A stretch of DNA of 32,000 bases from Geobacter sulfurreducens PCA (lineage in GTDB: Bacteria > Desulfobacterota > Desulfuromonadia > Geobacterales > Geobacteraceae). The stretch is taken from positions 2,760,001 through 2,792,000 of the forward strand of contig NC_002939.5 of NCBI RefSeq assembly GCF_000007985.2. The letters run 5' to 3'. A program made the translations under genes and the position numbers. Below, one piece after another: positions 2,037 through 25,973 of the stretch; within the stretch, counting starts at the first letter, position 1, and the number at the start of each line of letters is the position of its first letter. The notes under the pieces were generated by a model that saw only the letters and a list, made by a program, of their open reading frames with translations, was not told where the DNA came from and ran no database searches.

Positions 2037-3731
2037 CTACTCGTCGTGAACAATCTTTAATTCATTGAGTTTTCGGTACAAGGTGATACGGCTGATGCCG
2101 AGCAGGCGCGCCGCCTTGGCCTTGTTGCCGCCGGATTTTTCCAGGGCTTTCCGGATCGCCTGCAGGGTGGTCTCCCGCTCGGTGGCCGGTTCGTTGCCGT
2201 GGATCTCATGGTGTTCCATGAAATCCGAGGGAAGGTGTTCCAGGGTGATCAGGCCGGAAGTGCAGACGATGCACGAGTGTTCGAGCACGTGTTCCAGTTC
2301 GCGGACATTGCCCGGCCAGGGATAGGACATGAACACCTTCATGACCTCGTCGGAAACCGCGCTGACGTCCTTTTTGAACTTGCCGCGGAATTTGGCCAGG
2401 AAGTGTTCCACGAGCATGGGGATATCCTCGCGCCGTTCCCGCAGCGGCGGGATGTGGATCCGGACGACCTTCAGGCGGTAGAAGAGGTCTTCCCGGAACT
2501 GGCCGATCCGCACCTTTTCCGCCAGGTCGACGTTGGTGGCGGCAATGACCCGTACATCCACCTTGATGGGGGTGGAGTCGCCCACCCGCTCGAATTCCCT
2601 CTCCTGCAGGACCCGCAGCAGCCGCACCTGCATCCCCGGCGAGATGTCGCCGATCTCGTCCAGGAAGATCGTGCCGCCGTCCGCTTTCTGGAAACGGCCC
2701 ATCTTGTCCTTGATGGCGCCGGTGAAGGCCCCTTTCACGTGGCCGAACAGCTCGCTCTCCAGCAGCGGTTCCGCCAGGGCGGAACAGTTGACCTTGACGA
2801 AGGGCTTGGTGCTCCGCCCCCCCTTGTAGTGCAGGGCCGCCGCCACGAGCTCCTTGCCGGTGCCGCTCTCGCCGGTCACCAGCACGGTAGTGGGGACATC
2901 GGCCAGGGACTCGACAAAGGCGTAAATCTCCTTCATGCGGGGGCTGCTTCCCACCAGGTTGTGGAACGTCTCCCGCCCCTCGAAACTCTTTTCCAGATCA
3001 TCCAGGCGCGTTTCGTCGCGCACCACCATGACGGCCCCGGAGAAGGTGCCGGTCCGGTCCACCAGGGGGGAGGTCTTGAGGCTCACCACGCGCTTTTCGC
3101 TCCCCCCGACCACGCATTCGGTCCGCTGGGTCTCCACCGGCCGCTTGGTCTTGAGGGTTTCCGTGAGCGCGTGGAGGAACGCGCCGTTCCCCTCTCCCGG
3201 CACGTAGCGCCTGCCGATGGATTCGGCGGCGAGGCTGAAGAAGTATTTCCCGGACTCGTTGTAGGCCACCACGTTCATGTCCAGATCCACGGTGAGGATG
3301 GCATCGTCCACGCTCTGGAAGATGGCCTCCAGGTTGGTCCGGTATTTCTCCCGCTCCTCCATGAGGTCCTTGTGTTCGAGGGCCATGCGAGCCACCCGCA
3401 GCAGGGCGTCGCGCTTGACCGGCTTGGGGAGATAGTCGAAGGCCCCGAGCCGGACGGCGTCGGACGCCGTCTCCACGTTGGGATAGCCGGTGATCATCAC
3501 TACGGGGATGGAGGGCTGGCGCTCCTTGACTTCGCGCAGGACATCGATGCCGTTATCGTTGCCCAGGATGATGTCGGTGAAAACAAGGTCATAGTCGGCG
3601 GATTCGACCTTGCCGATCGCCTCCGCGAAATCGGCCGCCGTATCGACGGCATAGCCCTCGGCCGCGAGGAAGTGCTCGAACGTGAACCGCAGCGTGTCCT
3701 CATCCTCTACTATCAGAACCCTTCTGGCCAT
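2037..3731 (-). CDS. Sigma-54-dependent response regulator (REC-PAS-AAA+-Fis HTH), NtrC family
   Basis: 564 aa. Receiver domain (RVLIVEDE, DLVFTDIIL), central PAS-like segment, Walker A GESGTGKE, sigma-54 contact loop GAFTGA, Walker B FLDEIG, and C-terminal HTH (AARLLGISRITLYRKL). Confidence 0.95.
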   Translation of the reverse strand: MARRVLIVEDEDTLRFTFEHFLAAEGYAVDTAADFAEAIGKVESADYDLVFTDIILGNDNGIDVLREVKERQPSIPVVMITGYPNVETASDAVRLGAFDYLPKPVKRDALLRVARMALEHKDLMEEREKYRTNLEAIFQSVDDAILTVDLDMNVVAYNESGKYFFSLAAESIGRRYVPGEGNGAFLHALTETLKTKRPVETQRTECVVGGSEKRVVSLKTSPLVDRTGTFSGAVMVVRDETRLDDLEKSFEGRETFHNLVGSSPRMKEIYAFVESLADVPTTVLVTGESGTGKELVAAALHYKGGRSTKPFVKVNCSALAEPLLESELFGHVKGAFTGAIKDKMGRFQKADGGTIFLDEIGDISPGMQVRLLRVLQEREFERVGDSTPIKVDVRVIAATNVDLAEKVRIGQFREDLFYRLKVVRIHIPPLRERREDIPMLVEHFLAKFRGKFKKDVSAVSDEVMKVFMSYPWPGNVRELEHVLEHSCIVCTSGLITLEHLPSDFMEHHEIHGNEPATERETTLQAIRKALEKSGGNKAKAARLLGISRITLYRKLNELKIVHDE

Positions 3732-5565
3732 ACTCGTCCTCCCAGGTCATTACGGGCAAATCAATCATTACACGGGTGAACTCTCCCTCGACGCTTTCAA
3801 CCTTCAGTCGCCCTCCATGGTCCGAGATCAGGCCGTGACTGATGCTCAGCCCCAGGCCCGTGCCTTCAGCGGCAGGCTTGGTCGTGAAGAAGGGGTCGAT
3901 GACCCTCCCGATCACATCGCGCGGGATGCCGGTGCCGTTGTCCCTGAACTCGATCCGGACAAAGACGCCGTCATCTCCGATAATCTTTTCTCCCTTGATA
4001 TCCAGGCGCTTGCCCCCTCCCGCGCCGGCGGAGAACTTCTTGTCCAGGGCGTAGCGCGCGTTGCTGATGAGGTTGAGGAACACCTGCTCGATCTGGTGCG
4101 GGTGCACCAGCAGCGCCGGCAGGTCCGACGGCAGATCCACGTGGAGCTGGACCCCGTCACGCTTCAGCTGGACCCTGGTCAGTTCGAGGGTGTCGTTGAG
4201 GATGTCGGGCACATAGGCGGGGACCCGCTCCCTCCCCTCGTAGCGGGCAAAGGAGAGCAGGCTCCGGACGATGACCGCCACCCGCTCCCCCTCCTTGATG
4301 ATCCTGCTCGCAACCCCCCGTTCCGGCTCGCTGAGGCACGGCTCCGCCGCCAGGATCTGGGCACAGTTGATGATGCCGTTGATGGGGTTGTTGATCTCGT
4401 GGGCCACGCCGGCCGCGACTTCGCCCAGGGACGCCAGGTGCCAGGTCTGCATGGCGTCCTTCTGGATCGTCTCCTTTTCGATCTCCTTGAGCCGCAGCCG
4501 CTCCAGCAGGCCGTTGATCGCCTCGGCGGTTTCGCGGATTTCGTCGTTGGAGTCGATCCGGACCATGGGCAGGTCGCCGTTTGACGCCCCCAGCTGCCTG
4601 ATCTGGCGGGTGAGGGAGAGCAGCGGCGAGATGAGATGGCTCATGGTCATCCACATGAGCAGGGCGGCAAAGACGCCGCCGCAGCCCATGATCCACCAGG
4701 AGAGCCGGACCAGGCGCTGCACGGGCGCGTAGGCCTCTTCCACCGGATATGAAGCGGCCAGGATCCAGTCGATGCTGCCCAGCTTCTTCATGGTTGAGAG
4801 GGTCCGGCTGCCGTCCCGCTGTCCGAGCTCGCCCTGGACATTGGCGCCGCGTCTCGCCTGGGCGATGCGCGCCGTCATACCCTCGGCCTGCTTGTCCGCG
4901 GGGCTGAAAATCCGCTCACGCACCGGATGCATGATAACCACCCCTTCGTGGTCGTAGAGGCTGAAGTATCCCAGCGAGCCGATCCGGGCGGTGGAGAGAT
5001 CGCCCAGGAGGTTATCCTTATAGAGATCGGTGCTGCCGGCCAGGATGGCGATCAGCTTGCCCCCGGAGCCGAACACCGGCGCGGTGAACATTACAACGGG
5101 ATGGTGCAGGGTCCGGGGGACATAGGGAGCGGAAATGACCGGCTTGCCGGTGGCGAGGGTATCCTTGACGTATTCCCTGAACGAATAGTCACGGCCGACG
5201 CGGCTCGGCTTCCAGGCGGTCTCGGCGATCAACTGGCCCCCGGGGTTCAGCAGGAAGGTGCCGCTGTCGAAATACATGCTGAGGAACGAGCGTTCGTAGA
5301 GGAAACGCTCCGCTGCCCGCGGGTCGCGGACGACCTGTTCGGGGATGCTCAGGGCCACGGATACAAGCATCCTCTGGGCGGAGGATATCTTGAAATCCAG
5401 CTCCGACGCGGTCCGGCTCACCAGAATGACCTGCTGGTTCTGGATCGACTCCTGTAACCGGTCCTTGAAGTAACCGATGACGAAATAGGAGGTGGCCGGT
5501 GCAACGCCGAAAAAGACCAGCAGCACAATCGTGACGATTTTTGCTTTCAGGCTGATTTTGCGCAT
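3700..5565 (-). CDS. Sensor histidine kinase (Cache-like periplasmic domain, HAMP, HisKA, HATPase_c)
   Basis: H-box HEINNPINGI, N-box NLISNARYAL, G-boxes DNGTGIP and GTGLGLS. A TM segment, Cache-like region and second TM precede a HAMP domain. I place the start at the ATG at 5565 (MRKISLKAKIVTIVLLVFF) rather than the TTG at 5616. The 3' end overlaps the regulator start by 32 nt. Confidence 0.9.
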   Translation of the reverse strand: MRKISLKAKIVTIVLLVFFGVAPATSYFVIGYFKDRLQESIQNQQVILVSRTASELDFKISSAQRMLVSVALSIPEQVVRDPRAAERFLYERSFLSMYFDSGTFLLNPGGQLIAETAWKPSRVGRDYSFREYVKDTLATGKPVISAPYVPRTLHHPVVMFTAPVFGSGGKLIAILAGSTDLYKDNLLGDLSTARIGSLGYFSLYDHEGVVIMHPVRERIFSPADKQAEGMTARIAQARRGANVQGELGQRDGSRTLSTMKKLGSIDWILAASYPVEEAYAPVQRLVRLSWWIMGCGGVFAALLMWMTMSHLISPLLSLTRQIRQLGASNGDLPMVRIDSNDEIRETAEAINGLLERLRLKEIEKETIQKDAMQTWHLASLGEVAAGVAHEINNPINGIINCAQILAAEPCLSEPERGVASRIIKEGERVAVIVRSLLSFARYEGRERVPAYVPDILNDTLELTRVQLKRDGVQLHVDLPSDLPALLVHPHQIEQVFLNLISNARYALDKKFSAGAGGGKRLDIKGEKIIGDDGVFVRIEFRDNGTGIPRDVIGRVIDPFFTTKPAAEGTGLGLSISHGLISDHGGRLKVESVEGEFTRVMIDLPVMTWEDEYGQKGSDSRG

Positions 5566-5705
5566 GGACAAAGCGGGACTCGAAACAACATTACATTTTA
5601 AATACAATATATGCAATTTATAACAATACAGTTATGTGTGTCACACCCCAAATGATGATAATCAGCTAACAACCAGTTGCGCCGTGCAGAGCCCCGTGAT
5701 TAACA

Positions 5706-9305: not shown

Positions 9306-11927
9306 TCATTCCCTCGGCGCGGCCGGCAACAGGGGCACCGTGCGGCCGGCGATATACCTCTCGAACTCCTCCGGCGGCAGCGGGCGGGAAAAGTAAAAGC
9401 CCTGGATTTCCTCGCAGTTCCCCTCCATCAGCAGCTTCATCTGCTCGGCGGTCTCGACCCCCTCGGCAACCACCTTCATGTGCATGTGGTGGGCTATGCC
9501 GATGATGGTGGCGACGATTGCCGCATCTTCCCGCCGCTTCACCATATCGTCGATGAACGACTTGTCGATCTTGAGGACATCCACCGGGAAACGCTTCAGG
9601 TAGTTGAGCGACGAGTAGCCGGTACCGAAGTCGTCGATGCTGATGGTGATACCCCGCTCCCGGAGCCGGTTCATGATCTTGACCGTTTCGTCCACGTTGT
9701 GGGTCAGGGCGGTCTCGGTCAGTTCCAGCTCCACAAAGTGGGGGGAGAGCCCGCTCTGCTCGATGATCCGCACCACCCGGTCCACGAAGTCGTGGCCCAC
9801 GAACTGGCGGGCGGAGATGTTGACCGACACCCGGAGGGAATCGTGGCCCATCCGGTGCCATTCCAGCGCCTGGCAGCAGGCGGTAGCCAGGACCCAGTCC
9901 CCGATTTCCACGATGAGCCCCGAATCCTCGGCGATGGGGATGAAGTCGGCGGGCGAGATCAACCCCATGTCCGGGCTGTTCCAGCGGACCAGCGCCTCCA
10001 TGCCGACCACGGCGCCGGTGCCCGGTTCCAGGCGGGGCTGGTAGTGCAGGAGCATCTCCCCCTTCTCCAGGGCCCGGCGCAGCCCAGTTTCAATGGTGAG
10101 GCGGGCATTGACCTTCTGGTTCATCTCCTCGGCAAAGAACTGGAAGCTGTTCCGGCCGCTTTCCTTGATGTGGTACATGGCCGTATCGGCCTTCTTGATG
10201 AGTGCTTCCATGGTGTCGCCGTCGTCGGGGAACAGGGAGATGCCCATGCTGGCGGTAATGAATATCTCCCGCCCGCCCAGGAAAAACGGCATGGCGAGGA
10301 GGTTGCGGAAGCTCTCGGCCACGGTGACCGCATCATCCATCCGCGTCAGGTTGGTCAGGACGATGACGAATTCATCCCCTCCCAGCCGGGCAAAGGTGTC
10401 GCAGTTGCGCACGAAGGATCGGATGCGGGCCGCCACGCTGCGCAGGAGCTGGTCCCCTGCCGTGTGACCCAGGGTGTCGTTGACCACCTTGAAGTTGTCC
10501 AGGTCGAACATGAGGAGCGCCACCATCTGCCCCCGGCGGCGGGCGCCAGCGACGGCCTGATTGAGGCGGTCCTCCAGAAGCGAGCGGTTGGGGAGCCCGG
10601 TGAGGGTGTCGTGGGTTGCCTGGTGCAGGAGCTCCTCCTGGAACCGGCGGCGATCGGTGATGTCGTGGAACATGAGGCAAAGGGCCTGATCGTCCCCGTG
10701 GGGGACCTGGGTGGCCATGGCCTCGACAACGAGCTCGGCGCCGTCCCGGTGACACAGGCTCAGCTCCCGCGTTTCCCGGAGGCAACGCTCCAGTTCGCTA
10801 TCTACTTCCTGGACGGGACCGCTCAGGAGCGCGTGGATGTCAGCCCCGGTCAGTTCGTTTCGCGAGAAGCCGAGCAGGACGCAGGTGGCCGGATTGGCGT
10901 CGATGATCGTCCCCGCCCCCGGCTCCAGCAACAGGATCGCCTGGTTGGTCCGCTCCACCACCAGCCGGTTCCGCTCCTCGGAGCGCCGGCCCTGCTGCAG
11001 CGACTCCAGCAGCCTGCGCCAGAACAGGTTGATGATAAACGCGAAGCAGACCCCCACCACCGCGAACCAGGTCAGGAAGTAGGTGACGGCCTTTTTCCCC
11101 TCCTGGTAGATGCTGCGGGGCGCGTCGACCCTCAGAAGCAGGGCGGGTTTGCCATAGATGTCGGGAATGGCGGCATAGCCGGCGATCATTTTGCTGTCGG
11201 CGCGGCGCAGAACGACCGGCGCCCCCTGTGCCAGTTCGCCCCGGACCGCCGCGAAATCGGGGGGAAGCGTAGCATCGTCTGCGGTGTGTATCTCCAGGGG
11301 AATGTGGATTGTCTCCGAGAGCCGCATCACCTCTTCTTTGTCGAGCAGGCGGCCGAGCACGAGGACACCCCGCACCGGACCGGCATACTTGCTCGTGAGC
11401 ACGGGTCGGGCCGCAACCAGGAACGGGCCCTCGGGCAGGGTCACGATGCCCGAGACGTGCTGGTCCGGGGTGGTGAGGGACACGAGCTTCGCCCCGGGCT
11501 TCAGGTGCTCCTCCAGGCCGGCGGGAAGCGGTTCGTACTTTCCGGAGGCTCTGTCGAACCCCCGGCCGTAGACCACATCCGCCCTGGAATTGAGATACAC
11601 CAGGGCATTCAGCCGGAGCTTGGGATATATTTCAATGGTGAGATTCGAGGCGATGAAGTCGCTGTTGCGGTCCCGGACAAACTGGTAGGCGTCGTCCCAT
11701 CCCGAATAGTCGGTGCAGATCGTCGAGAGCTTGTCCAGCTCGTCGGCGATGATGCTGGTGGCCCGCTCCACGTTCTTGCACATGTCCCGGGACTCCACCT
11801 CGGTGAAACTGTCGACCAGAATGTGGCGTACGCCGAAAAAGAGAACGAGGAGAATCGCCAGGAGCAGACCGGTGATACCCAGCAGGATTTTCGCGGGGCG
11901 GCTGTACTGTGTGAAGAACGCAACCAT
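9306..11927 (-). CDS. CHASE4-TM-PAS-GGDEF-EAL signalling protein (diguanylate cyclase/phosphodiesterase)
   Basis: 873 aa. N-terminal TM plus a periplasmic CHASE4-like region, second TM, and PAS. The GGDEF motif is intact (RLGGDEF) and an RNCD I-site lies 5 residues upstream. EAL-domain motifs are intact (EALVRW, DDFGTGYSS, KIDKSF, EGVET). Confidence 0.95.
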   Translation of the reverse strand: MVAFFTQYSRPAKILLGITGLLLAILLVLFFGVRHILVDSFTEVESRDMCKNVERATSIIADELDKLSTICTDYSGWDDAYQFVRDRNSDFIASNLTIEIYPKLRLNALVYLNSRADVVYGRGFDRASGKYEPLPAGLEEHLKPGAKLVSLTTPDQHVSGIVTLPEGPFLVAARPVLTSKYAGPVRGVLVLGRLLDKEEVMRLSETIHIPLEIHTADDATLPPDFAAVRGELAQGAPVVLRRADSKMIAGYAAIPDIYGKPALLLRVDAPRSIYQEGKKAVTYFLTWFAVVGVCFAFIINLFWRRLLESLQQGRRSEERNRLVVERTNQAILLLEPGAGTIIDANPATCVLLGFSRNELTGADIHALLSGPVQEVDSELERCLRETRELSLCHRDGAELVVEAMATQVPHGDDQALCLMFHDITDRRRFQEELLHQATHDTLTGLPNRSLLEDRLNQAVAGARRRGQMVALLMFDLDNFKVVNDTLGHTAGDQLLRSVAARIRSFVRNCDTFARLGGDEFVIVLTNLTRMDDAVTVAESFRNLLAMPFFLGGREIFITASMGISLFPDDGDTMEALIKKADTAMYHIKESGRNSFQFFAEEMNQKVNARLTIETGLRRALEKGEMLLHYQPRLEPGTGAVVGMEALVRWNSPDMGLISPADFIPIAEDSGLIVEIGDWVLATACCQALEWHRMGHDSLRVSVNISARQFVGHDFVDRVVRIIEQSGLSPHFVELELTETALTHNVDETVKIMNRLRERGITISIDDFGTGYSSLNYLKRFPVDVLKIDKSFIDDMVKRREDAAIVATIIGIAHHMHMKVVAEGVETAEQMKLLMEGNCEEIQGFYFSRPLPPEEFERYIAGRTVPLLPAAPRE

Positions 11928-12609: not shown

Positions 12610-13050
12610 ATGATTTCAAAAGCTATCAGTGCCCAATGCCGCCACCTGCATCGGGCCGCCGTTCTTGTGGCAGTGATGTCCGCCCTTGCCGCAACCGGCT
12701 GTTCGAAGAAGGAGGCACCGCAGGCACCCGCGCCGTCCGCCGGGACGCCGCAGGCAGGGGCGCCGGCCGCCATGCCCGAGGGGATGAGCGGCCAGCAGCA
12801 AACCGCCATGGGACGGGCCATCTTCAACAAGCGGTGCGCCAGCTGCCACGGCACGGACGGCAACGGCGCGGGGAGCCGCAGCGGACCGGCACTCGACCAG
12901 GCCCAGTTCAAGTACGGCAGAACCCCCGAGGCAATCCGGGAAAGCATCGTCAAGGGACGCCCCAACGGCATGCCTGCCTTTGGAGCCGCCTTCCAGGAAA
13001 TTGAAATCGACACCCTGGTCGGCTACGTGATGGGTCTCACCAAGCAGTAA
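12610..13050 (+). CDS. Monoheme class I c-type cytochrome, probable lipoprotein
   Basis: 146 aa. Lipobox-like LAATGC, a single CXXCH motif (CASCHG), and a distal Met region NGMPAF typical of class I cytochromes c. Confidence 0.85.
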   Translation: MISKAISAQCRHLHRAAVLVAVMSALAATGCSKKEAPQAPAPSAGTPQAGAPAAMPEGMSGQQQTAMGRAIFNKRCASCHGTDGNGAGSRSGPALDQAQFKYGRTPEAIRESIVKGRPNGMPAFGAAFQEIEIDTLVGYVMGLTKQ

Positions 13051-13089
13051 ATTACGTCACCCATTCGCCACGTTCCCGCCCCGAAGACA

Positions 13090-13118
13090 CCCCCTGCCCT
13101 GACGGGAGGGCACGGGGG
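13090..13118 (+). terminator. GC-rich hairpin downstream of the cytochrome gene (no U-tract)
   Basis: CCCCCTGCCCT / AGGGCA-c-GGGGG forms an 11-bp stem with one bulge and a 6-nt loop, 40 nt after the stop codon. No T-run follows, so terminator function is uncertain. Confidence 0.3.
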
Positions 13119-13320
13119 CCTCTCGGAGAAAACACCCCGCACGAAAGCGGGATCCAGGGGTGCTGGAAATCGGATCAATGGCATCTCAACTCAATCCAGG
13201 TGTCCCGGTGACAACAGCAAAAAGTGGCGTCTTTTCAGGCGTGGAGCTCTCTTCACGGCTGAACCAAAATGCTACAACATGTGCAATCGTCATTATTTTG
13301 CACTCCGAACGCTTTTGTTT

Positions 13321-13349
13321 TTGACACAGAGTTTCTAATCTGATACAAA
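13321..13349 (+). promoter_or_regulatory. Sigma-70-type promoter driving the riboswitch leader
   Basis: TTGACA (13321..13326), 17-nt spacer, TACAAA (13344..13349). It lies about 30 nt upstream of the aptamer. Confidence 0.5.
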
Positions 13350-13374
13350 AGTGTATCAATTAACCAGAGCAGTA

Positions 13375-13466
13375 AGCTGGCGATAGCGATACTACTAAAC
13401 CATCCGCGAGGATGGGGCGGAAAGCCCACAGGGTCTCACGAAGACAGCCGGGTTGCCGAACTATCA
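13375..13466 (+). promoter_or_regulatory. GEMM-I cyclic-dinucleotide riboswitch aptamer (A20-type, possible 3',3'-cGAMP class)
   Basis: ACUAAACCAUCC-GCGA-GGAUGGGGCGGAAAGCC...AGCCGGGUUGCC aligns with the Vibrio Vc2 aptamer GGCAAACCAUUC-GAAA-GAGUGGGACGCAAAGCC...AGCGGGGUUACC. A GNRA-capped P1b helix is present. The Vc2 G21-C46 pair is replaced by a compensatory C(13395)-G(13420) pair. The position equivalent to G20 is A (13394). Confidence 0.7.
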
Positions 13467-13498
13467 CACCACGATAGGGCGGCGGCCCGGCTTTTTTT
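13447..13498 (+). terminator. Riboswitch expression platform: intrinsic terminator
   Basis: GCCGGGUUGCCG (13447..13458) pairs with CGGCGGCCCGGC (13480..13491): 12 bp including two G-U pairs. An inner CUAUC/GAUAG extension is present and a U7 run follows (13492..13498). The 5' arm is shared with the 3' strand of the aptamer. Confidence 0.7.
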
Positions 13499-13609
13499 GT
13501 GCCGTGGCCGCGCCGGCCGGTGACGGAAGGGAGGTGACCACTAACCGATAGAGACCGGCCATGATCTACACACGACACGGATTCAGGCATCCTATTCAGG
13601 GAGGAAACT

Positions 13610-14035
13610 ATGGCTAAAAGAATTCAGACCGTTACGAGAGGGCACATTACAGCCGCAGCGGCCCTGGTCATCGGCGTGCTGGCGGCATTCACCGCGGACG
13701 CCAATACGGGCCGGACCGCCGACGGTTCGGTACCACGCACCCCGGCCATCATAGCCACACCCGGCGAACGGACAATTCAAGCCGACCCCGCCTACCCGCT
13801 CCCCCAACCGGCAGAGCGAAAATCACGGACTGAGGCGCGCCGTTCAGGCCCCATTGACGGAGCTACGCTCTACTATACCGGCAACTGCGCCGGTTGCCAC
13901 GGCACCATGGCGAACATGAAGGGAACCACGGCGGAAATGATCCGCTTCGCCATCGACAACAACGTGGGCGGCATGGGCTTTCACGTGAACCTTACCCCGG
14001 AAGAACTCCACTCCATTGCCGACGCCCTCAAATAA
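13610..14035 (+). CDS. Small periplasmic monoheme c-type cytochrome
   Basis: 141 aa. GGAGG Shine-Dalgarno, signal peptide (AAALVIGVLAAFTADA), one CXXCH motif (CAGCHG). Confidence 0.8.
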   Translation: MAKRIQTVTRGHITAAAALVIGVLAAFTADANTGRTADGSVPRTPAIIATPGERTIQADPAYPLPQPAERKSRTEARRSGPIDGATLYYTGNCAGCHGTMANMKGTTAEMIRFAIDNNVGGMGFHVNLTPEELHSIADALK

Positions 14036-14044
14036 CCGCGAAAA

Positions 14045-14074
14045 GGAAGGGGCCACCGCTTCCGGTGCCCTTCC
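14045..14074. terminator. Hairpin after the cytochrome gene
   Basis: GGAAGGGGCCACCG-CTTC-CGGTGCCCTTCC, a stem with two bulged bases. A T-run follows only in the minus-strand reading (TTTT, 14041..14044). Confidence 0.35.
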
Positions 14075-14146
14075 ACCACATCCCTTCAGACATGTACCCG
14101 AAAAACAACGCTCTCACCAACGTCCCGTCGTAAGTCCTGCCAATTG

Positions 14147-14176
14147 AAAAGGGCCACCGACTCTGGTGACCCTTTT
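14147..14176. terminator. Bidirectional intrinsic terminator between convergent transcription units
   Basis: AAAAGGGCCACC (14147..14158), loop GACTCT, GGTGACCCTTTT (14165..14176). There is one mismatch, and A/T runs sit on both flanks so a U-tract follows on either strand. It lies between the cytochrome gene (+) and the rhodanese operon end (-). Confidence 0.55.
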
Positions 14177-14339
14177 ACAGATCACATTCTCCGCTATCGA
14201 TCCAATCTTCCATGAAAGTAATTGCGAGGCAGTGCGGCTGCCGGCGCTGCGACGCACGCGTCCGGCAACGTGAGGCAGCCGTGACGCCACAGCGATCGAA
14301 CCGACCATAATTACCACCAGGAACGTACCAATCGGGACA

Positions 14340-15083
14340 CTACCTTGCTACCGGCAGCCCCGCCTCCTTCCACTCGACGAACAGCGACTGGAATATTGAG
14401 GGATAGGCGAGGCCGATCAGCTTCTTGTAGGCCATGTAGCTGCGGCTGCCCGTATTGCAGTAGACAATGATCTTCTTTTCCTTGGGCAGTTGGTCGGACC
14501 GTGCCGCAAGCTGCTCGGCCGGGATATTGATGGCCGTGGGGATGTGCCCCTCCTCGAACTCCATATCATCCCTCACGTCGATCAGGACATAGTCCTGGCT
14601 GCCGGAGCGGATCATCCGGTCCAGCTCGGCTGCCGGGACTATGGTCGTCTCGATCTTCCTGCCGTAGCCCGCCCCCTTGACGATGGGGAGACCCCGCTCT
14701 TCCCAGACCGGCATCCCTTCGTTATAAACGGCAATGGCGGTGTAGCCCAGGGGTTCCACCTTTTTGGCCACCCGCTTGCTTTTGCCGCACTTGATACCGT
14801 TGCAGTAGAGAACGATGAGCTTCGCCTTGTCGGCCGGGAGTTGCGCCGAAGCGCTGTCGAAGGTCTTCTCCGGCACGTTGACCGCTCCGACGATGTGCGC
14901 TTCCGCATACTCTTCGGGGGTCCGGGCATCGATCAGCAGGAAATCCCGCTTCTCGTCGATCATGGCCTTCAGGTGGTCCGTGGTCACGACCGGGTAATCC
15001 CCGGCGGCCCAGCCGGCACCGCCGGCCAGGATGCCGAGGGCCAGGACGGCGCATGCCAGCGCACGCTGCACAATTTGTTTCAT
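14340..15083 (-). CDS. Periplasmic tandem-rhodanese sulfurtransferase
   Basis: The start is placed at the internal ATG at 15083, which has an AAAGGAGGA Shine-Dalgarno and opens MKQIVQRALACAVLALGILAGGAGWA (signal peptide). Two rhodanese domains carry active-site loops YCNGIKCGKS and YCNTGSRS. Confidence 0.85.
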   Translation of the reverse strand: MKQIVQRALACAVLALGILAGGAGWAAGDYPVVTTDHLKAMIDEKRDFLLIDARTPEEYAEAHIVGAVNVPEKTFDSASAQLPADKAKLIVLYCNGIKCGKSKRVAKKVEPLGYTAIAVYNEGMPVWEERGLPIVKGAGYGRKIETTIVPAAELDRMIRSGSQDYVLIDVRDDMEFEEGHIPTAINIPAEQLAARSDQLPKEKKIIVYCNTGSRSYMAYKKLIGLAYPSIFQSLFVEWKEAGLPVAR

Positions 15084-15199
15084 GGTTCTTCCTCCTTTGG
15101 GTGACAGGCTCGGGCAGGAACGCCCGGATTTCATAACCCCGCGCGGGGGCGACACAACATCAGACGGATCGCTTCGGCCGGACCGGGGGCCGCGGCGGA

Positions 15200-17197
15200 T
15201 CAGCGGTGCAGCCTTTTCCACTCCTCCATGCCCCCCTCGTAATTGCGGGCAGGGCCCAGGCCGGCCAGTTCGTGCACCATCAGGGCGTACGCCGACCGGA
15301 TTCCCCCGGCACAGTAATAGACAACGGGCCGGTCCGCATCGACCCCGTTCCTGGCCAGAAGCCTGCGCACCTCGGCCGGAGCCAGGGGGCGACGCTCCTT
15401 GCCCGTAAAGAACTTGTTCCAGGGGATGTGCACCGAGCCTGGGATACGTCCGGCGAGCCGCTCGAAAAAGGAGCGGGTATCGATAATCGTGACCGCGCCG
15501 AGCGAACGCTCCAGTTCGGCGGTGGTAATATCTTCCTCGGGCCGAACGGCAGAGCGGTACGTCAGGGTGCCGCCGCTGTACCGTTCATGGCCTCGCGTGA
15601 GGGGAAGTCCCGCGGCGGTCCAGGCCTGGATGCCGCCGTTGAGCATCCGCACGGGGCCCTTGTGCCCGAGCCAGGCCAGGACCCAGGCGGCCCAGCCCTC
15701 CCCTCCCCAGCTCTTGTCCGCATCCCCGTACACCACCACGGGAGTCCGCTCGTCGATCCCCATGGATCCCAGGGCCCGGGCGAGGTCGCGGGGCGGCCAG
15801 AGCTTGTAGGGGACCCCCTTGTCGTCCGTTCTGGTGTAGTTCTCCCACGAAAAGGAACGGGCGCCGGGGATGTGACCCGCCTGCCAGTCGGAGCGCGGAC
15901 GGCCGTCGAGCACCACCCAGGTTCCGGGGGCGCGCGCCAGGGTCTGGGGCTCCATCAGCCCGAAATCGCGGGCTGACGCACCGGAAACGGCAAGCATCAC
16001 CACAAGGACAGCCGCCGCCAGCATCAGGAGGATGAGTACGGCGGCGCGTCTCCCGCCGACAGCGCTGCCGACGCCATCGGCAGCGCTGCGGAAGGTCCGC
16101 TCCCGCGACGAGGCCACCGGGAGGCTGCGGCGCAACCGCCTCTTCAGCAGCAACCGGTTCAGGTAGGTCCGGGGACCGCTGGCCACCTTGACCCTGCCCG
16201 CCAGGGCGGCCTCAGGTTCGAAAAGCAGGTCCGCCACGTGGCTGGTGGGCGTGTGCGGACCGAGATACGAGGCGCAGCCGGCACAGTAGGTGATCGTCGT
16301 GCTGCCGCCGGCCTCTGCCGCGCGCAGGGAGGTCCATGCCCCGGCCAGGCGGGGCGCGGTGCAGCGGACCGCTCCTCCCTCGCCGCAGCAGAGGGTCCGG
16401 ACGCCGTGGTGGGGCATTTCCCGAACCCTGAGCCCGGCTGCGCCCAGCAGCGTTCTCACGGCCGCGTGCACCCCGGCGTTATCGCGCGAGACGCAGGGAT
16501 CGTGCACGGTCACAGCGCCCTCGGTCTGTTTGAAGCTGATGCCCGCCCGCGCCAGTACCTCGTAAACGGTGACCACCTCCAGCTCCGGGGCATAGCGGGA
16601 GAACACCTCATGGCAGTTGGGACAGGCCACCTGGACGGTCTTCACCCCCTGCGCCAGCAGGTAGGCCTTCATTTCGCCGAACATGGCCGTAAAGTGCCCG
16701 GATCGTCCCAGGTCGTGGGACGGCTTGGTGCAACAGTCGAGAACCATGCCGAGGGATGGTTCGCTGCCGCGCAGCAGGTCGAAGAGCTTCAGCGTTGTCC
16801 GGGGGCGGGTCCCCGGCAGCGCGCAGCCGGGGAAAAAGATCGTACGGCACCCGTCGGGGAGCCCGTACCAGGTGAAAAGTCTCGATGTCCCGGCCCGCTC
16901 GTAGGAAAGGAGCCCCCGGTAGGGAGACAGTTGCAGCGTACCGGCATCGGCGGTGGCGCGCCGCATGGCAAGGAACAGGGCGGCAGGATCGACCCCTTCG
17001 GGGCAGACCGCGCGGCAGAGGCCGCACAGGCTGCACCCGAAGGGGAGATGGGACTGGTCCAGTCGCCGGGGGTCAAAGGATGCTGCCAGCGCCTTTGGCG
17101 TGCCGTGCTCCCGCAGGAAGGCGCATTCGGCTACGCAGATGCCGCAGGCGGTGCAACGCGTCGCCACGTCACCGGCGGACCAGGGGGAATGACTCAT
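15200..17197 (-). CDS. HdrD/GlcF-like Fe-S + CCG-domain protein fused through one TM helix to a tandem rhodanese module
   Basis: Two ferredoxin-type motifs (CTACGICVAEC, CSLCGLCRAVCP) and two CCG-type Cys-rich regions (CCTKP...CPNC; CCGEGG...CAGC). An Arg-rich linker leads into a TM helix (AAVLILLMLAAAVLVVMLAV). Rhodanese 1 lacks the catalytic Cys (YGDADKSWG); rhodanese 2 has it (YYCAGGIRS). The ATG at 17197 overlaps the upstream stop (ATGA). Confidence 0.85.
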   Translation of the reverse strand: MSHSPWSAGDVATRCTACGICVAECAFLREHGTPKALAASFDPRRLDQSHLPFGCSLCGLCRAVCPEGVDPAALFLAMRRATADAGTLQLSPYRGLLSYERAGTSRLFTWYGLPDGCRTIFFPGCALPGTRPRTTLKLFDLLRGSEPSLGMVLDCCTKPSHDLGRSGHFTAMFGEMKAYLLAQGVKTVQVACPNCHEVFSRYAPELEVVTVYEVLARAGISFKQTEGAVTVHDPCVSRDNAGVHAAVRTLLGAAGLRVREMPHHGVRTLCCGEGGAVRCTAPRLAGAWTSLRAAEAGGSTTITYCAGCASYLGPHTPTSHVADLLFEPEAALAGRVKVASGPRTYLNRLLLKRRLRRSLPVASSRERTFRSAADGVGSAVGGRRAAVLILLMLAAAVLVVMLAVSGASARDFGLMEPQTLARAPGTWVVLDGRPRSDWQAGHIPGARSFSWENYTRTDDKGVPYKLWPPRDLARALGSMGIDERTPVVVYGDADKSWGGEGWAAWVLAWLGHKGPVRMLNGGIQAWTAAGLPLTRGHERYSGGTLTYRSAVRPEEDITTAELERSLGAVTIIDTRSFFERLAGRIPGSVHIPWNKFFTGKERRPLAPAEVRRLLARNGVDADRPVVYYCAGGIRSAYALMVHELAGLGPARNYEGGMEEWKRLHR

Positions 17198-17616
17198 TTG
17201 CCCGATTCGCAGAGCTGGGGATGGGGCCACCCCTCCATTCCTTTTTCAAGGATGAAGAGCCGCTTCTCATCCACGCCGCGGGACTTCAGGTAGTCATAGG
17301 TGTTCTTGGCACCGCCGCCGCCCCGGGGGCAAACGATAACCACTTCATCGGCGGAGGCGTTGATCCGCTCGAGGGTCTTGTCGAGCCGCTGCTTTTCCTC
17401 GTCGCTCTTGACGGGATAGGCGTTGGTTTCGAGGGAGCCCTTGAAATGGCGCTTCTGGAACGATTCGGGGGTCTGGATGTCCACGATGACCATGGACTTG
17501 CCGCCTTCGACCCACTGCTTGAATGTGTCCTGATTCACGTACCGGTAATCGGCCGCCAGCGCCGCTACCGCGAAGGCCACCACCATCATTGCTGCCAGCA
17601 CTACTACTTTTCTCAT
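17194..17616 (-). CDS. Periplasmic single-domain rhodanese
   Basis: 140 aa. AAGGAG Shine-Dalgarno, signal peptide (VVLAAMMVVAFAVAALA), active-site loop VCPRGGGGAKN. Confidence 0.85.
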   Translation of the reverse strand: MRKVVVLAAMMVVAFAVAALAADYRYVNQDTFKQWVEGGKSMVIVDIQTPESFQKRHFKGSLETNAYPVKSDEEKQRLDKTLERINASADEVVIVCPRGGGGAKNTYDYLKSRGVDEKRLFILEKGMEGWPHPQLCESGK

Positions 17617-17643
17617 TCGATTCTCCTTTTTTCCGGGACCGCC

Positions 17644-18807
17644 CTAGGCGGTCCTCTTCATTGAACGGTGGACAATTTCGAGGAATGCCTCGACCCGGAC
17701 CTTGAGCTGGCCCGTGTCCGACTCCGAATAGTCGGTTTCGATCTGGAGGAACGGCAAACCGGTCCGCTGCTGGAGATGCTTCTTCAGGACCGATGATTCG
17801 ACGGCATAGGTATGGCACCCGAGCCAGGTCAGGTCCACGACTCCGTCCACGCGGAATTCGCGCGTCAGGCGCTCCACCAGCTCCAATCGGCCGGTATTTG
17901 GCGACATGCATGAGCAGGGCACCTTCAGGTACCGTTCGGCGATGGCCCGAAGCGGGTCGCCGCCCTCCCGCACCTGCTCCACCTTCTTGTAAGCCCCGCA
18001 GCTCTCCAGGCAGACCACCGAAGCGCCGCTCTCCTCGATGATCCGGATCAGCTTTTCCGAACCGACTCCCACCGGCACGCCGGTGAGCAGAATCCGCGGG
18101 GTGGATTCGGTGAAGGGGGAAATGCCCGCCGCGGCCATCTGCCGCAACTCAGCCGCGAACCGGTCCACCAGCTCGATGGCTGCCCGCCGGTCCACGGAAA
18201 AGCCGCGGTTGTGAAGGACGGTCAGCAGGTCGAGGCCGCTGATGGGGGACGGGATGGCCTTGCAGACATCCTGGAGGGCCTGGAGGGACCGGCGTTCTTC
18301 GTTCATGAGTCGGATGGCTTCGGTCAGGGCCTTGTCGGTGATCCGCACCCCGAACTCCCGTTCGAGCCGGGTCTTGAGCCGACCGATCTCCATGAGCCAG
18401 TAGTCCAGGGCAGCCTCGTCCTGGATCTGGGGAAGCTGCATCACATGGATCGGCTTGAGCTCCCCCAGGAGCTCATACATCTTTTTCTTGCCGTCGCAGG
18501 TGGTCTCTGCCAGGAGGAAGTCGGCAAAGTGAAAATAGGGACAGGTGTCCGTGACGGCAAACCCGTAGCTCGACTTGATGAGCGGACAGAGGTTGCGGGG
18601 CAGCACCTTCTCGGCCGCGGGGATCGGCTTCTGGCTCGTGCCGCAGAGCGACACGGGAATGGCGCCGGCCGCCAGAATCAATTCCGTCGGCGAGAAGAGA
18701 CAGTAGGTGCCCACCGCGTGCCGGCCGGCTTCCCTGGCCTCCTTGAGGGCGATGAGATTGCGCTCCTTGAGGGTGGCAATCTCGGCAAAGGTTTCTGAAT
18801 GTATCAT
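17644..18807 (-). CDS. 2-hydroxyacyl-CoA dehydratase (HGD-D) family protein, double-cubane-cluster-protein-like
   Basis: 387 aa with the family's scattered cysteines (GTYCLFSP, SLCGTS, NLCPLIK, DTCPYF, TTCDGKKK, VVCLESCG, VPCSCMSP, LGCHTY). It lies directly downstream of an activase-type ATPase and appears as a single subunit, not an alpha/beta pair. Confidence 0.8.
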   Translation of the reverse strand: MIHSETFAEIATLKERNLIALKEAREAGRHAVGTYCLFSPTELILAAGAIPVSLCGTSQKPIPAAEKVLPRNLCPLIKSSYGFAVTDTCPYFHFADFLLAETTCDGKKKMYELLGELKPIHVMQLPQIQDEAALDYWLMEIGRLKTRLEREFGVRITDKALTEAIRLMNEERRSLQALQDVCKAIPSPISGLDLLTVLHNRGFSVDRRAAIELVDRFAAELRQMAAAGISPFTESTPRILLTGVPVGVGSEKLIRIIEESGASVVCLESCGAYKKVEQVREGGDPLRAIAERYLKVPCSCMSPNTGRLELVERLTREFRVDGVVDLTWLGCHTYAVESSVLKKHLQQRTGLPFLQIETDYSESDTGQLKVRVEAFLEIVHRSMKRTA

Positions 18808-18840
18808 GGCGACGGGATGGCCTCTTTCCGGACCGGCATG

Positions 18841-19602
18841 CTACGCATTGCAGCCGATGAGGGCGGCGCCGAGGGCGCCCACGATCTGGGGGTCTTCCGG
18901 CACGTGCAGGGAAAGCCCCAGCCGCCGGGCGATGACGCCGCTGATGGAGCCGTTGGTGGCGAGTCCCCCGGTGAAGGTAATCCCCTCGTGGGCTTCCAGC
19001 CGCCCCACCAGCCCTTCCATCCGGCGGGCGATGGCGTCGATGATGCCGGCCGCAATGGCGCCCTTGGGCGTTCCCTGGGCGAGGAGGCCGATGATTTCCG
19101 ATTCGGCGAAGACCGTGCACATGCTGGTGAGCGGCACCGGTTCGCTGGACGCGGCCAGGGAGCCGAGCTCGTCGAGGGTGAGGTCGAGGATGCCCGCCAT
19201 GACCTGGAGAAAACGGCCGGTGCCCGCGGCGCACTTGTCGTTCATGATGAAGTCGGATACCGACCCGTCGTCGCTTACCAGGATGACCTTGCTGTCCTGG
19301 CCGCCGATATCGATGACCGCGCGGGTGTCGGGATTCAGGTACCAGGCCCCGCGCGCGTGACAGGAAATCTCCGTGACCCGCTGGTCGCTGAACGGCAGAG
19401 ATACCCGGCCGTAACCGGTGCCCACCACGCGGGAGACGCTTTCTTCCCGGAGGCCGGCGGACGAAAGAGCTTCGCGAAAGGCCCGAAGGCCCGCCTCGCG
19501 CGGCTCCCAGCCGGTGGGTACCACTGCCCGGCCGCGAACCATGCCGTCGAACACGACTGCCTTGGTGGCGGTGGAGCCGATGTCGATCCCGACACTCACC
19601 AT
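18841..19602 (-). CDS. BcrAD/BadFG/HgdC-type activase ATPase (ATP-dependent electron-injecting reductase)
   Basis: The start is placed at the ATG at 19602, which has a GGGAGG Shine-Dalgarno. ASKHA phosphate-1 motif GIDIGSTATKAV, and the two cluster-bridging Cys contexts DKCAAGTGRF and CTVFAESEIIG. Confidence 0.9.
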   Translation of the reverse strand: MVSVGIDIGSTATKAVVFDGMVRGRAVVPTGWEPREAGLRAFREALSSAGLREESVSRVVGTGYGRVSLPFSDQRVTEISCHARGAWYLNPDTRAVIDIGGQDSKVILVSDDGSVSDFIMNDKCAAGTGRFLQVMAGILDLTLDELGSLAASSEPVPLTSMCTVFAESEIIGLLAQGTPKGAIAAGIIDAIARRMEGLVGRLEAHEGITFTGGLATNGSISGVIARRLGLSLHVPEDPQIVGALGAALIGCNA

Positions 19603-19651
19603 ATCTGCCTCCCGCCGCAGCAGCGCCGCGGCATCACACAATCAGCACCCA

Positions 19652-20239
19652 TTACAGGCGAATGACGGAACCGGCCGTGAGCAGCGCCTCGGCCGTGGTG
19701 AACATATTGGTTACCGTTCCGGCCGCGAGTTTCTCCTTGCAGTGGAAAAAGTCGAGACAGACGCCGCAAGAAAGGACCTCTACACCCCGGTTGCCCAGCT
19801 GCTCCAGCGCCTGAAGCACCTCCGACCCTTCGGTGGTGAGGAGCACGCCCGAGTTGAGGAACATCATCCGGTCAGGGAGACTCTCCTGGTCGAGCAGCGT
19901 AATGATGAAGCTCTTCATCAGGAGCCGGCCGAGGTCCTCGGGGCCGTCGCCCAGGCGGTCAGAGGTGATGAGCATGACCGTCCGGCCCTGCCGCGCGGGG
20001 TTCTCCGCCGGGGCCGAAGGGGCGCCCTCCCCGCTGCCGATGGTGATGGCAAAGCCGCCGTCCGCCTCCTCGACAGCCACCCTGAATCCCCGGTTGGCGG
20101 CGAAGCGGGCCACGTTCTCGCGGGGCGCCCCCGCATCGACGAGCACCCGCACGGTCTCTCCGCCTGCCTCCTCCAGTGCCCGCTTGGTGGTCACCACCGG
20201 AGCCGGGCACGCCATATTCCTGCAATCGATCGTTTTCAT
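19652..20239 (-). CDS. yedF: YedF-type protein (TusA/SirA-like domain fused to DsrE-like domain)
   Basis: 195 aa. N-terminal TusA motif CRNMACPAPV. The C-terminal DsrE/DsrF-like half reads RTVMLITSDRLG...VEVLSCGVCLDFF. This length and architecture match the YedF family. Confidence 0.8.
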   Translation of the reverse strand: MKTIDCRNMACPAPVVTTKRALEEAGGETVRVLVDAGAPRENVARFAANRGFRVAVEEADGGFAITIGSGEGAPSAPAENPARQGRTVMLITSDRLGDGPEDLGRLLMKSFIITLLDQESLPDRMMFLNSGVLLTTEGSEVLQALEQLGNRGVEVLSCGVCLDFFHCKEKLAAGTVTNMFTTAEALLTAGSVIRL

Positions 20240-21829: not shown

Positions 21830-23224
<1,395 letters not shown>

Positions 23225-24671: not shown

Positions 24672-25973
24672 TCAGCGTTCGAGACGCACGGCCGCCACGA
24701 GTTCTTCCAGTTCGAGTCCGCTCCCGACCACAACACCAAGGCTGCCGTCATCCTCGCGGCGATAGAGGTCGAAGAGGGGGCGGCGTTGTCCGTCCTCTCC
24801 CTTGACGCTCTTGGCGGTGACGATCCCCACCCGGGCAAGCTGGGGCTGGGAGCAGGAGTTGGGGCAGCCGGATATGGACCACCGGAGCGCCGCGGCATCG
24901 TCACCCATGGCGCCGATAACAGCCCGGGCCACGTCCCTGGTCGGCGCGAGTCCCATGGCGCATTCGTGGCTGCCGGGGCAGATGCGGAAGGCTACCCGCT
25001 GTTCGGGACGGTCCGCAGCGAATCCGGCGGCGGCCACGGCGTCGAGGGCATCCTGACGGCGCACGGATTCGGGCAGGAGGAAGCGCACGTTCTGATCACC
25101 GGTGAGCACCATGAAGCCGCCGGCAACGTCACGGGCCACGGCGGCCAAGGACCGCAGGCCGCCCGTTGTCAGTTCGCCGGCAAAGACCGGTGCCTCCACG
25201 CAGACGCCGCCGGCGGCGACGGACGGGAACAGCTCGCCGCTGAAGGAGTCGGCCAGGGGCAGAGGCTGGTCTCCCCGGCGCTCCGCCACCAAGGCGAGGA
25301 AGTCCTCGCGGCCCAGGTCGCGGACCAGATGCTTGAGACGCTTTCCCTTGGGCGCACGCTCCTTGTAGACCCGGACAATGGCCTCCACCAGGGGGATGAT
25401 CCGATCCTCGGCCACCGCCTCCTCCACCAGGAATGCCGGCGAGGGTTCCCGGCCGAGGCCGCCGGCTGCCCAGACATCGTAGCGCGGTGCATCGGCCTCG
25501 TTCTCCCGGTGCACGAGCGACAGGTCCTGGATCAGGTGCCGCCCCTCGTTATCGCCGGTAAAAACGCCGATCTTGAATTTTTTAGGCAGCGCCTCGAAAT
25601 GGGGATTGCGGGTAAAGTGCAGATGGAGCTTGTGGGCCAGTGACTGGACCAGGGGCCAGGCCGCGGCGGTGACCGAGCCGCAGACCACCCCGCGCACCGC
25701 CCCGCCGCAGGCGCCGCGGGAGGTGAGGCCCACGGCGGCAAGGCCGCGCCAGACCGATGAAAGGTGATCCTCGGTGAGGCCGTGCAGCTCGATGCTTCCC
25801 CTGGTGGTAAGATGGAGCAGGCCGCCGGCGAACCGGTCGGCGATGTCGGCCACCGCCTCGGCCTGCTCCGCTGAAAGAATGCCCGCCGGCACCTTTATCC
25901 GGAGCATGAAGGTCCCGGGTTGTCGCTGGGCATACACGCCGTCAATTCTGAGCTGTTGCGGATCGAATCGCAT
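24672..25973 (-). CDS. Nitrite/sulfite reductase-family siroheme/[4Fe-4S] hemoprotein (short form)
   Basis: 433 aa. Cys cluster CPGSHEC ... CPNSC (CX5C-Xn-CX3C), preceded by ferredoxin-like half-domain repeats. Confidence 0.85.
   Translation of the reverse strand: MRFDPQQLRIDGVYAQRQPGTFMLRIKVPAGILSAEQAEAVADIADRFAGGLLHLTTRGSIELHGLTEDHLSSVWRGLAAVGLTSRGACGGAVRGVVCGSVTAAAWPLVQSLAHKLHLHFTRNPHFEALPKKFKIGVFTGDNEGRHLIQDLSLVHRENEADAPRYDVWAAGGLGREPSPAFLVEEAVAEDRIIPLVEAIVRVYKERAPKGKRLKHLVRDLGREDFLALVAERRGDQPLPLADSFSGELFPSVAAGGVCVEAPVFAGELTTGGLRSLAAVARDVAGGFMVLTGDQNVRFLLPESVRRQDALDAVAAAGFAADRPEQRVAFRICPGSHECAMGLAPTRDVARAVIGAMGDDAAALRWSISGCPNSCSQPQLARVGIVTAKSVKGEDGQRRPLFDLYRREDDGSLGVVVGSGLELEELVAAVRLER

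Follow-up and report, generated by a model that had tools for sequence, protein, structure and literature searches.

Closest described systems

Riboswitches of the GEMM-I fold sense cyclic dinucleotides, the prototype being Vc2 of Vibrio cholerae, an OFF-switch selective for cyclic di-GMP (c-di-GMP) (PMC6140456). The GEMM-Ib subclass is defined by an adenine at the position of Vc2 G20 (A20) and by the binding of cGAMP (3',3'-cyclic GMP-AMP) (PMC6140456), and its members precede genes for cytochromes and extracellular electron transfer (EET), expression of all of which falls upon deletion of gacA (PMC6456294). The locus considered here, a GEMM-I aptamer with an overlapping terminator upstream of a small cytochrome gene, lies in a 32,000-nucleotide (nt) stretch of the Geobacter sulfurreducens PCA genome (NC_002939.5, positions 2,760,001 to 2,792,000, forward strand; G+C 64%), hereafter termed the window, in whose coordinates all positions are given. 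A preliminary description of the locus had taken the cGAMP and cytochrome/EET background of Geobacter GEMM-I elements as established, which agrees with the literature (PMC6456294, PMC6140456).

Among the characterised members, the riboswitch Gm0970 upstream of the pilMNOP operon of Geobacter metallireducens (hereafter pilM) is a transcriptional ON-switch, in which the terminator sequesters C75 via G102 and the helix P1 is formed only in the presence of ligand (PMC9262584); its selectivity for cGAMP is reported as ~1600-fold, with a dissociation constant (Kd) of ~16 nM (PMC8835794). Gs1761 (GSUR3008; PDB 4YAZ), the prototype cGAMP riboswitch, lies upstream of pgcA (GSU1761) in G. sulfurreducens and acts as an ON-switch by antitermination, expression of pgcA dropping 10-fold in the gacA deletion (PMC6456294); a cGAMP selectivity of ~1200-fold is reported for it. 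GEMM-Ib riboswitches also occur in tandem, for example upstream of omcAHG / GSU2885 (PMC6456294). The occurrence of GEMM-Ib riboswitches in tandem, their ON-switch logic and their control of cytochrome genes have all been described before (PMC9262584, PMC6456294), and the present locus does not add a new mechanism to them.

Family membership and architecture of the aptamer

When the whole 32-kb window was compared with all Rfam families, a single match reached gathering level: RF01051 (c-di-GMP-I/GEMM-I), on the + strand from 13384 to 13460, spanning model positions 1-87 of 87 with 44.4 bits (gathering score 35; E = 1e-5). Every consensus pair of the RF01051 model is intact and standard in the window sequence. 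The aptamer comprises P2, capped by a GNRA loop (GCGA, 13406-13409), a P3 helix and a two-part P1, the distal part of which continues the helix beyond an AA bulge, while the proximal pairs are taken from the structure line of the related family RF03167 (helix coordinates in Table 1); the motifs GGCGGAAAGCC and AGCCGGGUUGCC are both found in it.

With respect to the binding pocket, A13394 falls on RF01051 model position 11, equivalent to Vc2 G20 and Gs1761 A14, and A13421, which follows the 3' strand of lower P2, is the equivalent of the intercalating adenine (Vc2 A47, Gs1761 A41). C13456 corresponds to the cytosine that pairs with the ligand guanine (Vc2 C92; C75), and in lower P2 the pairs C13395-G13420 and U13396-G13419 replace Vc2 G21-C46 and C22-G45, respectively. 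An A at G20/A14, a C at C92/C75, an A at A47/A41 and, as in the selective representatives, C-G followed by U-G in lower P2 are features by which GEMM-Ib membership was judged, and the window has all of them. The GEMM-I assignment of the preliminary description, along with its GNRA-capped CCAUCC/GGAUGG helix, the two motifs, the alignment of A13394 with G20 and the replacement of G21-C46, is borne out by the sequence and the covariance search. That description had, nevertheless, omitted the cytosine at the ligand-contacting A18/A12-equivalent position (C13392), which is taken up below.

The fold of 13355-13500 is more stable than expected from its composition (z = -6.07), none of 200 shuffled sequences being equally stable. 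In an alignment of 101 relatives, 93.1% of the cells are paired in the structure, compared with 29-47% for slid controls. Pairs changed on both sides number 8 among the 101 relatives, versus 4.1 in shuffles (0/500), a count in which several pairs were unable to vary, as the relatives had been fetched with a pattern fixing part of the sequence. P1 entered this count in its majority register, since the relatives use two registers and a fixed-register test failed; a register-free test, in turn, found that matches to the aptamer's own partner strand exceeded those to shuffled partners, both for P1 (71 vs at most 64) and for the terminator arm (55 vs at most 48). By sequence comparison, the element is a genuine member of the cyclic-dinucleotide riboswitches with the GEMM-I fold and, on every criterion open to sequence analysis except the adenine at the A18/A12 contact, it belongs to the A20 subclass (GEMM-Ib) of the Geobacter type.

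Terminator and switching logic

The aptamer is overlapped by an intrinsic terminator with a 13-bp outer stem, an inner stem of CUAUC with GAUAG and a U7 tract (Table 1). The 5' arm of this terminator is the 3' strand of aptamer P3 and P1, including the pocket nucleotide C13456, which pairs with G13482 in the hairpin, and the two structures are therefore mutually exclusive. In addition, CUAUC at 13461-13465 can pair with either of two GAUAG segments, that of P1 (13382-13386) or that of the terminator (13473-13477). The minimum free energy (MFE) structure of 13355-13500 is the long terminator hairpin, which by itself amounts to -35.2 kcal/mol; the fold containing the terminator reaches -64.8 kcal/mol versus -30.5 kcal/mol for the best fold that retains the aptamer pairs. 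Given this exclusivity and these energies, termination would be expected without ligand and read-through with it, i.e., an ON-switch, as established experimentally for pilM/Gm0970 (PMC9262584) and as had been proposed for this locus on account of the shared strand and the rivalry of the two GAUAG segments for CUAUC, of which the complementarity is confirmed. An overlapping terminator (a complementary CCNGG(C/T) arm followed by a T-run) was found in 103 of the 138 relatives with enough downstream sequence.

On this basis, transcription would begin from the TTGACA-17-TACAAA promoter and the nascent RNA would form P2 and P3. A cyclic dinucleotide would then dock at the three-way junction, with its A base on A13394 and its G base in a Watson-Crick pair with C13456, while A13421 would intercalate between the ligand bases and P1 (13382-13388 with 13457-13465) would be locked. 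P1 and P3 would thus retain the strand 13446-13465, which otherwise serves as the terminator 5' arm, and RNA polymerase would read through the U-tract (13492-13498) to yield a monocistronic mRNA for a secreted PgcA-like cytochrome. Without ligand, the far more stable terminator hairpin would form and transcription would end at about 13498. The element is probably a transcriptional ON riboswitch of the GEMM-Ib type with cGAMP as its most likely cognate ligand.

Comparison with the described riboswitches

The closest likeness is to the pilM riboswitch, the construct sequence of which (supplement of PMC9262584) was aligned through aptamer and terminator. The two aptamers are identical at 73 of 84 positions (87%), sharing A20, the C-G and U-G pairs of lower P2, the GCGA tetraloop, the A47 and C92 equivalents and the register of P1. 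In both, the 3' strand of the aptamer doubles as the 5' arm of the terminator and an inner hairpin competes for the P1 3' strand, and C13456-G13482 in the window has its counterpart in C75-G102 of pilM. They differ in that pilM has an A in place of C13392, a GAC rather than GGC bulge between P2 and P1a, G.A rather than G-U as the second P3 pair, and U-A where the window has the P1 pair G13386-C13461 (a compensatory change). The terminator loop and 3' arm are merely 59% identical, and the regulated gene encodes a cytochrome instead of opening a pilMNOP operon.

Gs1761 belongs to the same subclass and shares 10 of the 11 ligand-contact nucleotides listed for PDB 4YAZ (PMC7288161), including A14, A41, C75 and the C-G and U-G pairs of lower P2; the exception is A12, which is C in the window (a comparison made via the published contact list). 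Its target and the protein in the window belong to one heme-domain family (that of PgcA domains I and II), although PgcA, a ~50-kDa lipoprotein, has three heme domains joined by (PT)x linkers, whereas the protein in the window lacks a lipobox and has one heme domain with a single Pro/Thr/Ala-rich linker. Vc2 has the fold and the RF01051 membership of the window element, its P2 likewise ends in a GNRA loop, and its A47 (intercalating) and C92 (Watson-Crick pairing) have their equivalents in the window; apart from its ligand and direction of switching, it differs in that the window has A for G20, C-G for G21-C46, C for A18 and a short P3.

Conservation and copy number among relatives

A protein-seeded scan of species-representative genomes retrieved two orthologous loci, L001 (a metagenome-assembled genome, MAG, labelled 'Deltaproteobacteria') and L002 (a Geobacter sp. 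MAG), in which the orthologous small cytochrome has 66-67% identity over residues 56-141. The window aptamer is 96-98% identical to the aptamers of these loci and the rest of the terminator 82-88%, as against 56-59% for the leader and ~67% for the protein. Judged by sequence, this contrast of the RNA with leader and protein is a signature of purifying selection on the RNA.

Both orthologous loci carry tandem A20-type riboswitches, each with its own terminator (L001, 5221-5297 and 5409-5484; L002, 5399-5475 and 5577-5652), and in this they resemble the published tandem GEMM-Ib arrangements with two complete aptamer-terminator units; the window differs in having one unit, which matches orthologous copy 1 by sequence (CACAGGG; GGCGGCCCGGCTTTTT). 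No second or degenerate aptamer was detected within 13000-14100, even at E <= 10, and the spacer after the terminator gives only a weak alignment with its orthologous counterparts.

The comparison was extended, by scanning metagenomes for an A20-type core pattern, to more than 120 loci with ~146 unique aptamers, among which 17 adjacent aptamer pairs lie less than 300 nt apart. One of these loci (L025:6426-7035, - strand) carries four consecutive A20-type GEMM-I aptamers at a spacing of ~150-185 nt, and L007 and L042 carry three each; the published descriptions of tandem GEMM-Ib riboswitches that were consulted mention pairs only (precedent in PMC6456294).

The regulated cytochrome gene

The gene downstream of the terminator encodes a protein with a signal peptide, a Pro/Thr/Ala-rich linker of ~50 residues and a PgcA-type heme domain (residues ~83-141), characterised by CAGCH and by a conserved Met in GGMGF. 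In a search of PDB sequences, residues 83-140 were matched by 8QJ6 (E = 1e-9) and 8QJG (E = 3.5e-7), the CXXCH and the GGMGF Met being aligned; the two structures represent domains I and II of PgcA, each a monoheme domain with His-Met ligation (PMC11520253). Pfam Cytochrome_CBB3 matched the 141-aa protein under threshold, and NCBIfam held no model matching it. By sequence homology, the regulated protein is a single-domain homologue of the PgcA monoheme domains, with predicted heme binding. The same heme module, often in repeated form, is encoded directly downstream of A20-type aptamers in at least four other metagenomic loci (L044, L055, L082 and L112).

The gene is monocistronic, the next genes being on the opposite strand. 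Its Shine-Dalgarno sequence, 5 nt ahead of the ATG, is kept in L001 and L002 as part of GGAGGAAAC(C/T)ATG and is outside the switch, the terminator ending more than 100 nt upstream of it. Between the convergent cytochrome and rhodanese genes, the hairpin AAAAGGGCCACC...GGTGACCCTTTT (AAAAGGG...CCCTTTT, 14150-14181) is a candidate bidirectional terminator, for which a consensus terminator scan gave no call. As an observation apart, the PgcA-type module (residues ~82-140) also occurs in tandem arrays of 2-9 repeats (L003:4735-6591; L082:263-1813, - strand; L055:1150-1722; L044:2015-2464; L112:7889-8236), the locus with 9 repeats (L003) having no GEMM-I match.

Ligand identity and alternative explanations

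Selectivity for cGAMP cannot be proven from the sequence, since A20 alone gives bispecificity; given the pocket and its likeness to pilM and Gs1761, cGAMP is nonetheless the probable primary ligand, and the wording 'possible cGAMP sensor' of the preliminary description was suitably cautious. Several points weigh against a cGAMP-responsive ON-switch. The energy model gives no aptamer MFE at intermediate transcript lengths, although a non-MFE aptamer is expected for a fold that depends on ligand and tertiary contacts; the kinetic window is thus a presumed one. The Vc2 G20A mutant is bispecific (Kd 53 nM with c-di-GMP, 120 nM with cGAMP), the natural A20 riboswitch Cbe 1-2 binds both ligands and prefers c-di-GMP, and the OmcST riboswitch is reported to answer to both (PMC6456294). 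A cGAMP synthase (Hypr GGDEF or DncV-type) or other cGAMP-pathway gene was not found in the 32-kb window. Lastly, C13392 occupies the place of the ligand-contacting adenine Gs1761 A12 / Vc2 A18, of which the former makes a hydrogen bond with the pro-Sp oxygen of the phosphate at the A-alpha site.

Of the 146 unique A20-type relatives, 134 have A at the A12-equivalent position and 12 (~8%) have C, which always stands within the context CGAUACU.A. The C is present in each of the five aptamers at the orthologous loci of this cytochrome and also occurs in L018, L040, L063, L071, L073, L099, L103 and L114, and aptamers of this type stand upstream of unrelated genes. The nearest neighbours of the C-type aptamers are A-type and differ from them at 0-2 positions of the conserved core, and among the sampled relatives no position was found that varies exclusively together with C13392. 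This pattern favours a tolerated polymorphism. C13392 is regarded as a variant position and not an exclusion from GEMM-Ib, as none of the sources consulted makes this position a defining one; a cytosine may also provide an exocyclic amino donor. That the substitution is instead non-neutral, marking a tuned GEMM-Ib sub-variant with a shifted affinity threshold or a relaxed or altered cyclic-dinucleotide selectivity, is considered decidedly unlikely.

The substitution also enters the case for a bispecific or c-di-GMP response, which would tie the cytochrome to the c-di-GMP network, e.g., to the neighbouring CHASE4-GGDEF-EAL gene. Such a response has chemical precedent, as Vc2 G20A, Cbe 1-2 and even Gs1761 take c-di-GMP through protonation of the adenine (PMC6140456), and regulatory precedent in the dual sensitivity reported for OmcST (PMC6456294). 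Furthermore, residues outside the pocket and the stability of P1 determine selectivity, published point mutations in lower P2 being known to shift it (PMC9262584); in the window a phosphate-contacting adenine is replaced, and at a distance of 1.4 kb there is a gene for a canonical diguanylate cyclase/phosphodiesterase. Nevertheless, the pilM aptamer, which is selective for cGAMP, agrees with that of the window at 87% of positions and has the same A20 and lower P2, and the C-type aptamers, being 0-2 core substitutions from A-type ones and scattered among them, argue for a neutral polymorphism. All genes under GEMM-Ib control in G. sulfurreducens follow cGAMP (gacA deletion) and rise when c-di-GMP is lowered (esnD deletion) (PMC6456294), while the GGDEF-EAL gene is divergent, with two other genes between it and the riboswitch. 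A bispecific or c-di-GMP response is, on balance, unlikely.

Two further explanations dispense with a canonical GEMM-Ib function. The element might be a decaying, non-functional GEMM-I repeat left after loss of its tandem partner, in which termination or read-through would be constitutive and independent of any ligand, as could be suggested by the two aptamers in L001 and L002 against one in the window, and by the replacement of a conserved pocket adenine by C13392. This is very improbable, as aptamer and terminator are conserved far above the adjacent leader and protein, the pairs of the consensus structure are all intact, the remaining copy is orthologous copy 1 with a complete terminator of its own, and single-copy GEMM-Ib riboswitches such as those of pgcA and pilM are functional (PMC9262584, PMC6456294). 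Membership of the orphan variant c-di-GMP-I-GGC (RF03167), with binding of another, unknown ligand, draws on the narrow advantage of RF03167 (44.5 bits) over RF01051 in clan competition when a short region is searched by E-value. The score is, however, far under the RF03167 gathering score of 59, and the signature guanines at the G20 and A47 positions (consensus ...AAAGGC... and ...GACGCGAA...) are lacking, A13394 and A13421 standing in their place; this assignment was rejected and its likelihood is negligible. In the short-region search itself (13385-13461), clan competition names RF03167, which is below its gathering score, and not RF01051, which at 44.4 bits is above its own score of 35, and annotation ranked by E-value could therefore mislabel such aptamers.

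Promoter, leader and genomic neighbourhood

The coordinates of the locus are collected in Table 1. The promoter TTGACA-17-TACAAA of the preliminary description is present, and its -10 element is of the extended type (TGnTACAAA, with TG at 13341-13342). It is supported as a putative promoter because TTGACA and CTGATACAAA (the extended -10) are unchanged across the window, L001 and L002, while the flanking sequence diverges; identity with the two loci is 76-79% over the promoter segment, compared with the lower figure for the leader given above. A consensus promoter scan gave no call for it, the cause being A, not T, as the last base of the -10. A conserved leader hairpin abutting P1 was also considered and ruled out, with a median z of ~0 and presence in only 26 of 142 relatives.

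Table 1. Features of the riboswitch locus and the neighbouring GGDEF-EAL gene, in window coordinates (aa, amino acids).
Feature	Position	Strand	Basis or remark
Putative sigma-70 promoter	13321..13349	+	-35 TTGACA 13321-13326; 17-nt spacer; TACAAA 13344-13349
5' leader, promoter to P1	13350..13381	+	Poorly conserved in L001 and L002
GEMM-I aptamer (A20 / GEMM-Ib type)	13382..13465	+	RF01051 match; identity with relatives; covariation
P1, distal	13382-13386 / 13461-13465	+	GAUAG / CUAUC
P1, proximal	13387-13388 / 13457-13458	+	C13387-G13458, G13388-C13457
P2	13400-13405 / 13410-13415	+	CCAUCC / GGAUGG
P3	13423-13435 / 13443-13454	+	
Intrinsic terminator (expression platform)	13446..13498	+	MFE structure; recurs in relatives
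Terminator, outer stem	13446-13458 / 13480-13492	+	13 bp
Terminator, inner stem	13461-13465 / 13473-13477	+	CUAUC / GAUAG
U7 tract	13492-13498	+	
Shine-Dalgarno sequence	13600..13604	+	GGAGG
Regulated gene, predicted secreted monoheme c-type cytochrome (141 aa)	13610..14035	+	Open reading frame; PDB-sequence matches
CHASE4-PAS-GGDEF-EAL gene (873 aa)	9306-11927	-	Pfam; end at 11927 is 1,394 nt from 13321

The possible wiring of the riboswitch to the CHASE4-GGDEF-EAL gene, raised in the preliminary description, stands as regards the proximity of the gene; a direct link does not, in view of the enzyme's canonical signature. Hypr cGAMP synthases have Ser (or Thr) at GacA position 348, nine residues past the substrate Asn, together with GGDEF (PMC6456294), whereas the neighbouring protein reads NDTLGHTAGD, with Asp at this distance from the substrate Asn, and has its GGDEF, RxxD I-site (RNCD) and EAL motifs intact. 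It was therefore rejected as a Hypr cGAMP synthase, and the prediction is that it acts on c-di-GMP. GacA of G. sulfurreducens is inhibited by c-di-GMP via its own I-site (PMC6456294); therefore any link between the GGDEF-EAL protein and the riboswitch would, by analogy, be indirect and antagonistic.

A second small cytochrome c gene (12610-13050, +; 146 aa, CASCH, Pfam Cytochrome_CBB3 E = 4e-14) adjoins the riboswitch promoter upstream; it is syntenic in L001 (67% identity) and outside the riboswitch-controlled transcript. On the other side, the riboswitch gene is adjoined by a sulfur-handling/redox-like cluster (14340-20239 and 24672-25973, both -), comprising three rhodanese-domain proteins, one of them fused to a 4Fe-4S/CCG heterodisulfide-reductase-like module, an HGD-D dehydratase-like protein with a BcrAD/BadFG activator ATPase, TusA and a sulfite/nitrite-reductase-type protein. 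Regulatory genes at 2037-5616 (-) and 21830-23224 (+) encode two sigma-54-dependent response regulators (Rec-[PAS]-AAA+-Fis), a dCache-HAMP histidine kinase and a LysR regulator, a regulatory density typical of Geobacter-like genomes.

Significance

The additions to the published picture are modest: a PgcA-type domain is recognised in the target, orthologous loci differ in having a single riboswitch or a tandem pair, and the A12-to-C variant recurs among relatives. In practical terms, the analysis allows the riboswitch, its ON-switch logic and the regulated gene to be annotated, and the natural A12-to-C variant, along with the single-versus-tandem orthologous pair, is usable for studying how riboswitch sensitivity is tuned; should the variant prove to be a tuned one, paralogous riboswitches of one Geobacter-like genome could fire at different second-messenger levels. 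For the biology of these bacteria, the locus probably enlarges by one cytochrome the cGAMP/GEMM-Ib regulon governing extracellular electron transfer in Geobacter-like bacteria, and a minimal single-domain PgcA relative as its target would support the view that GEMM-Ib control goes along with the PgcA-type heme module.

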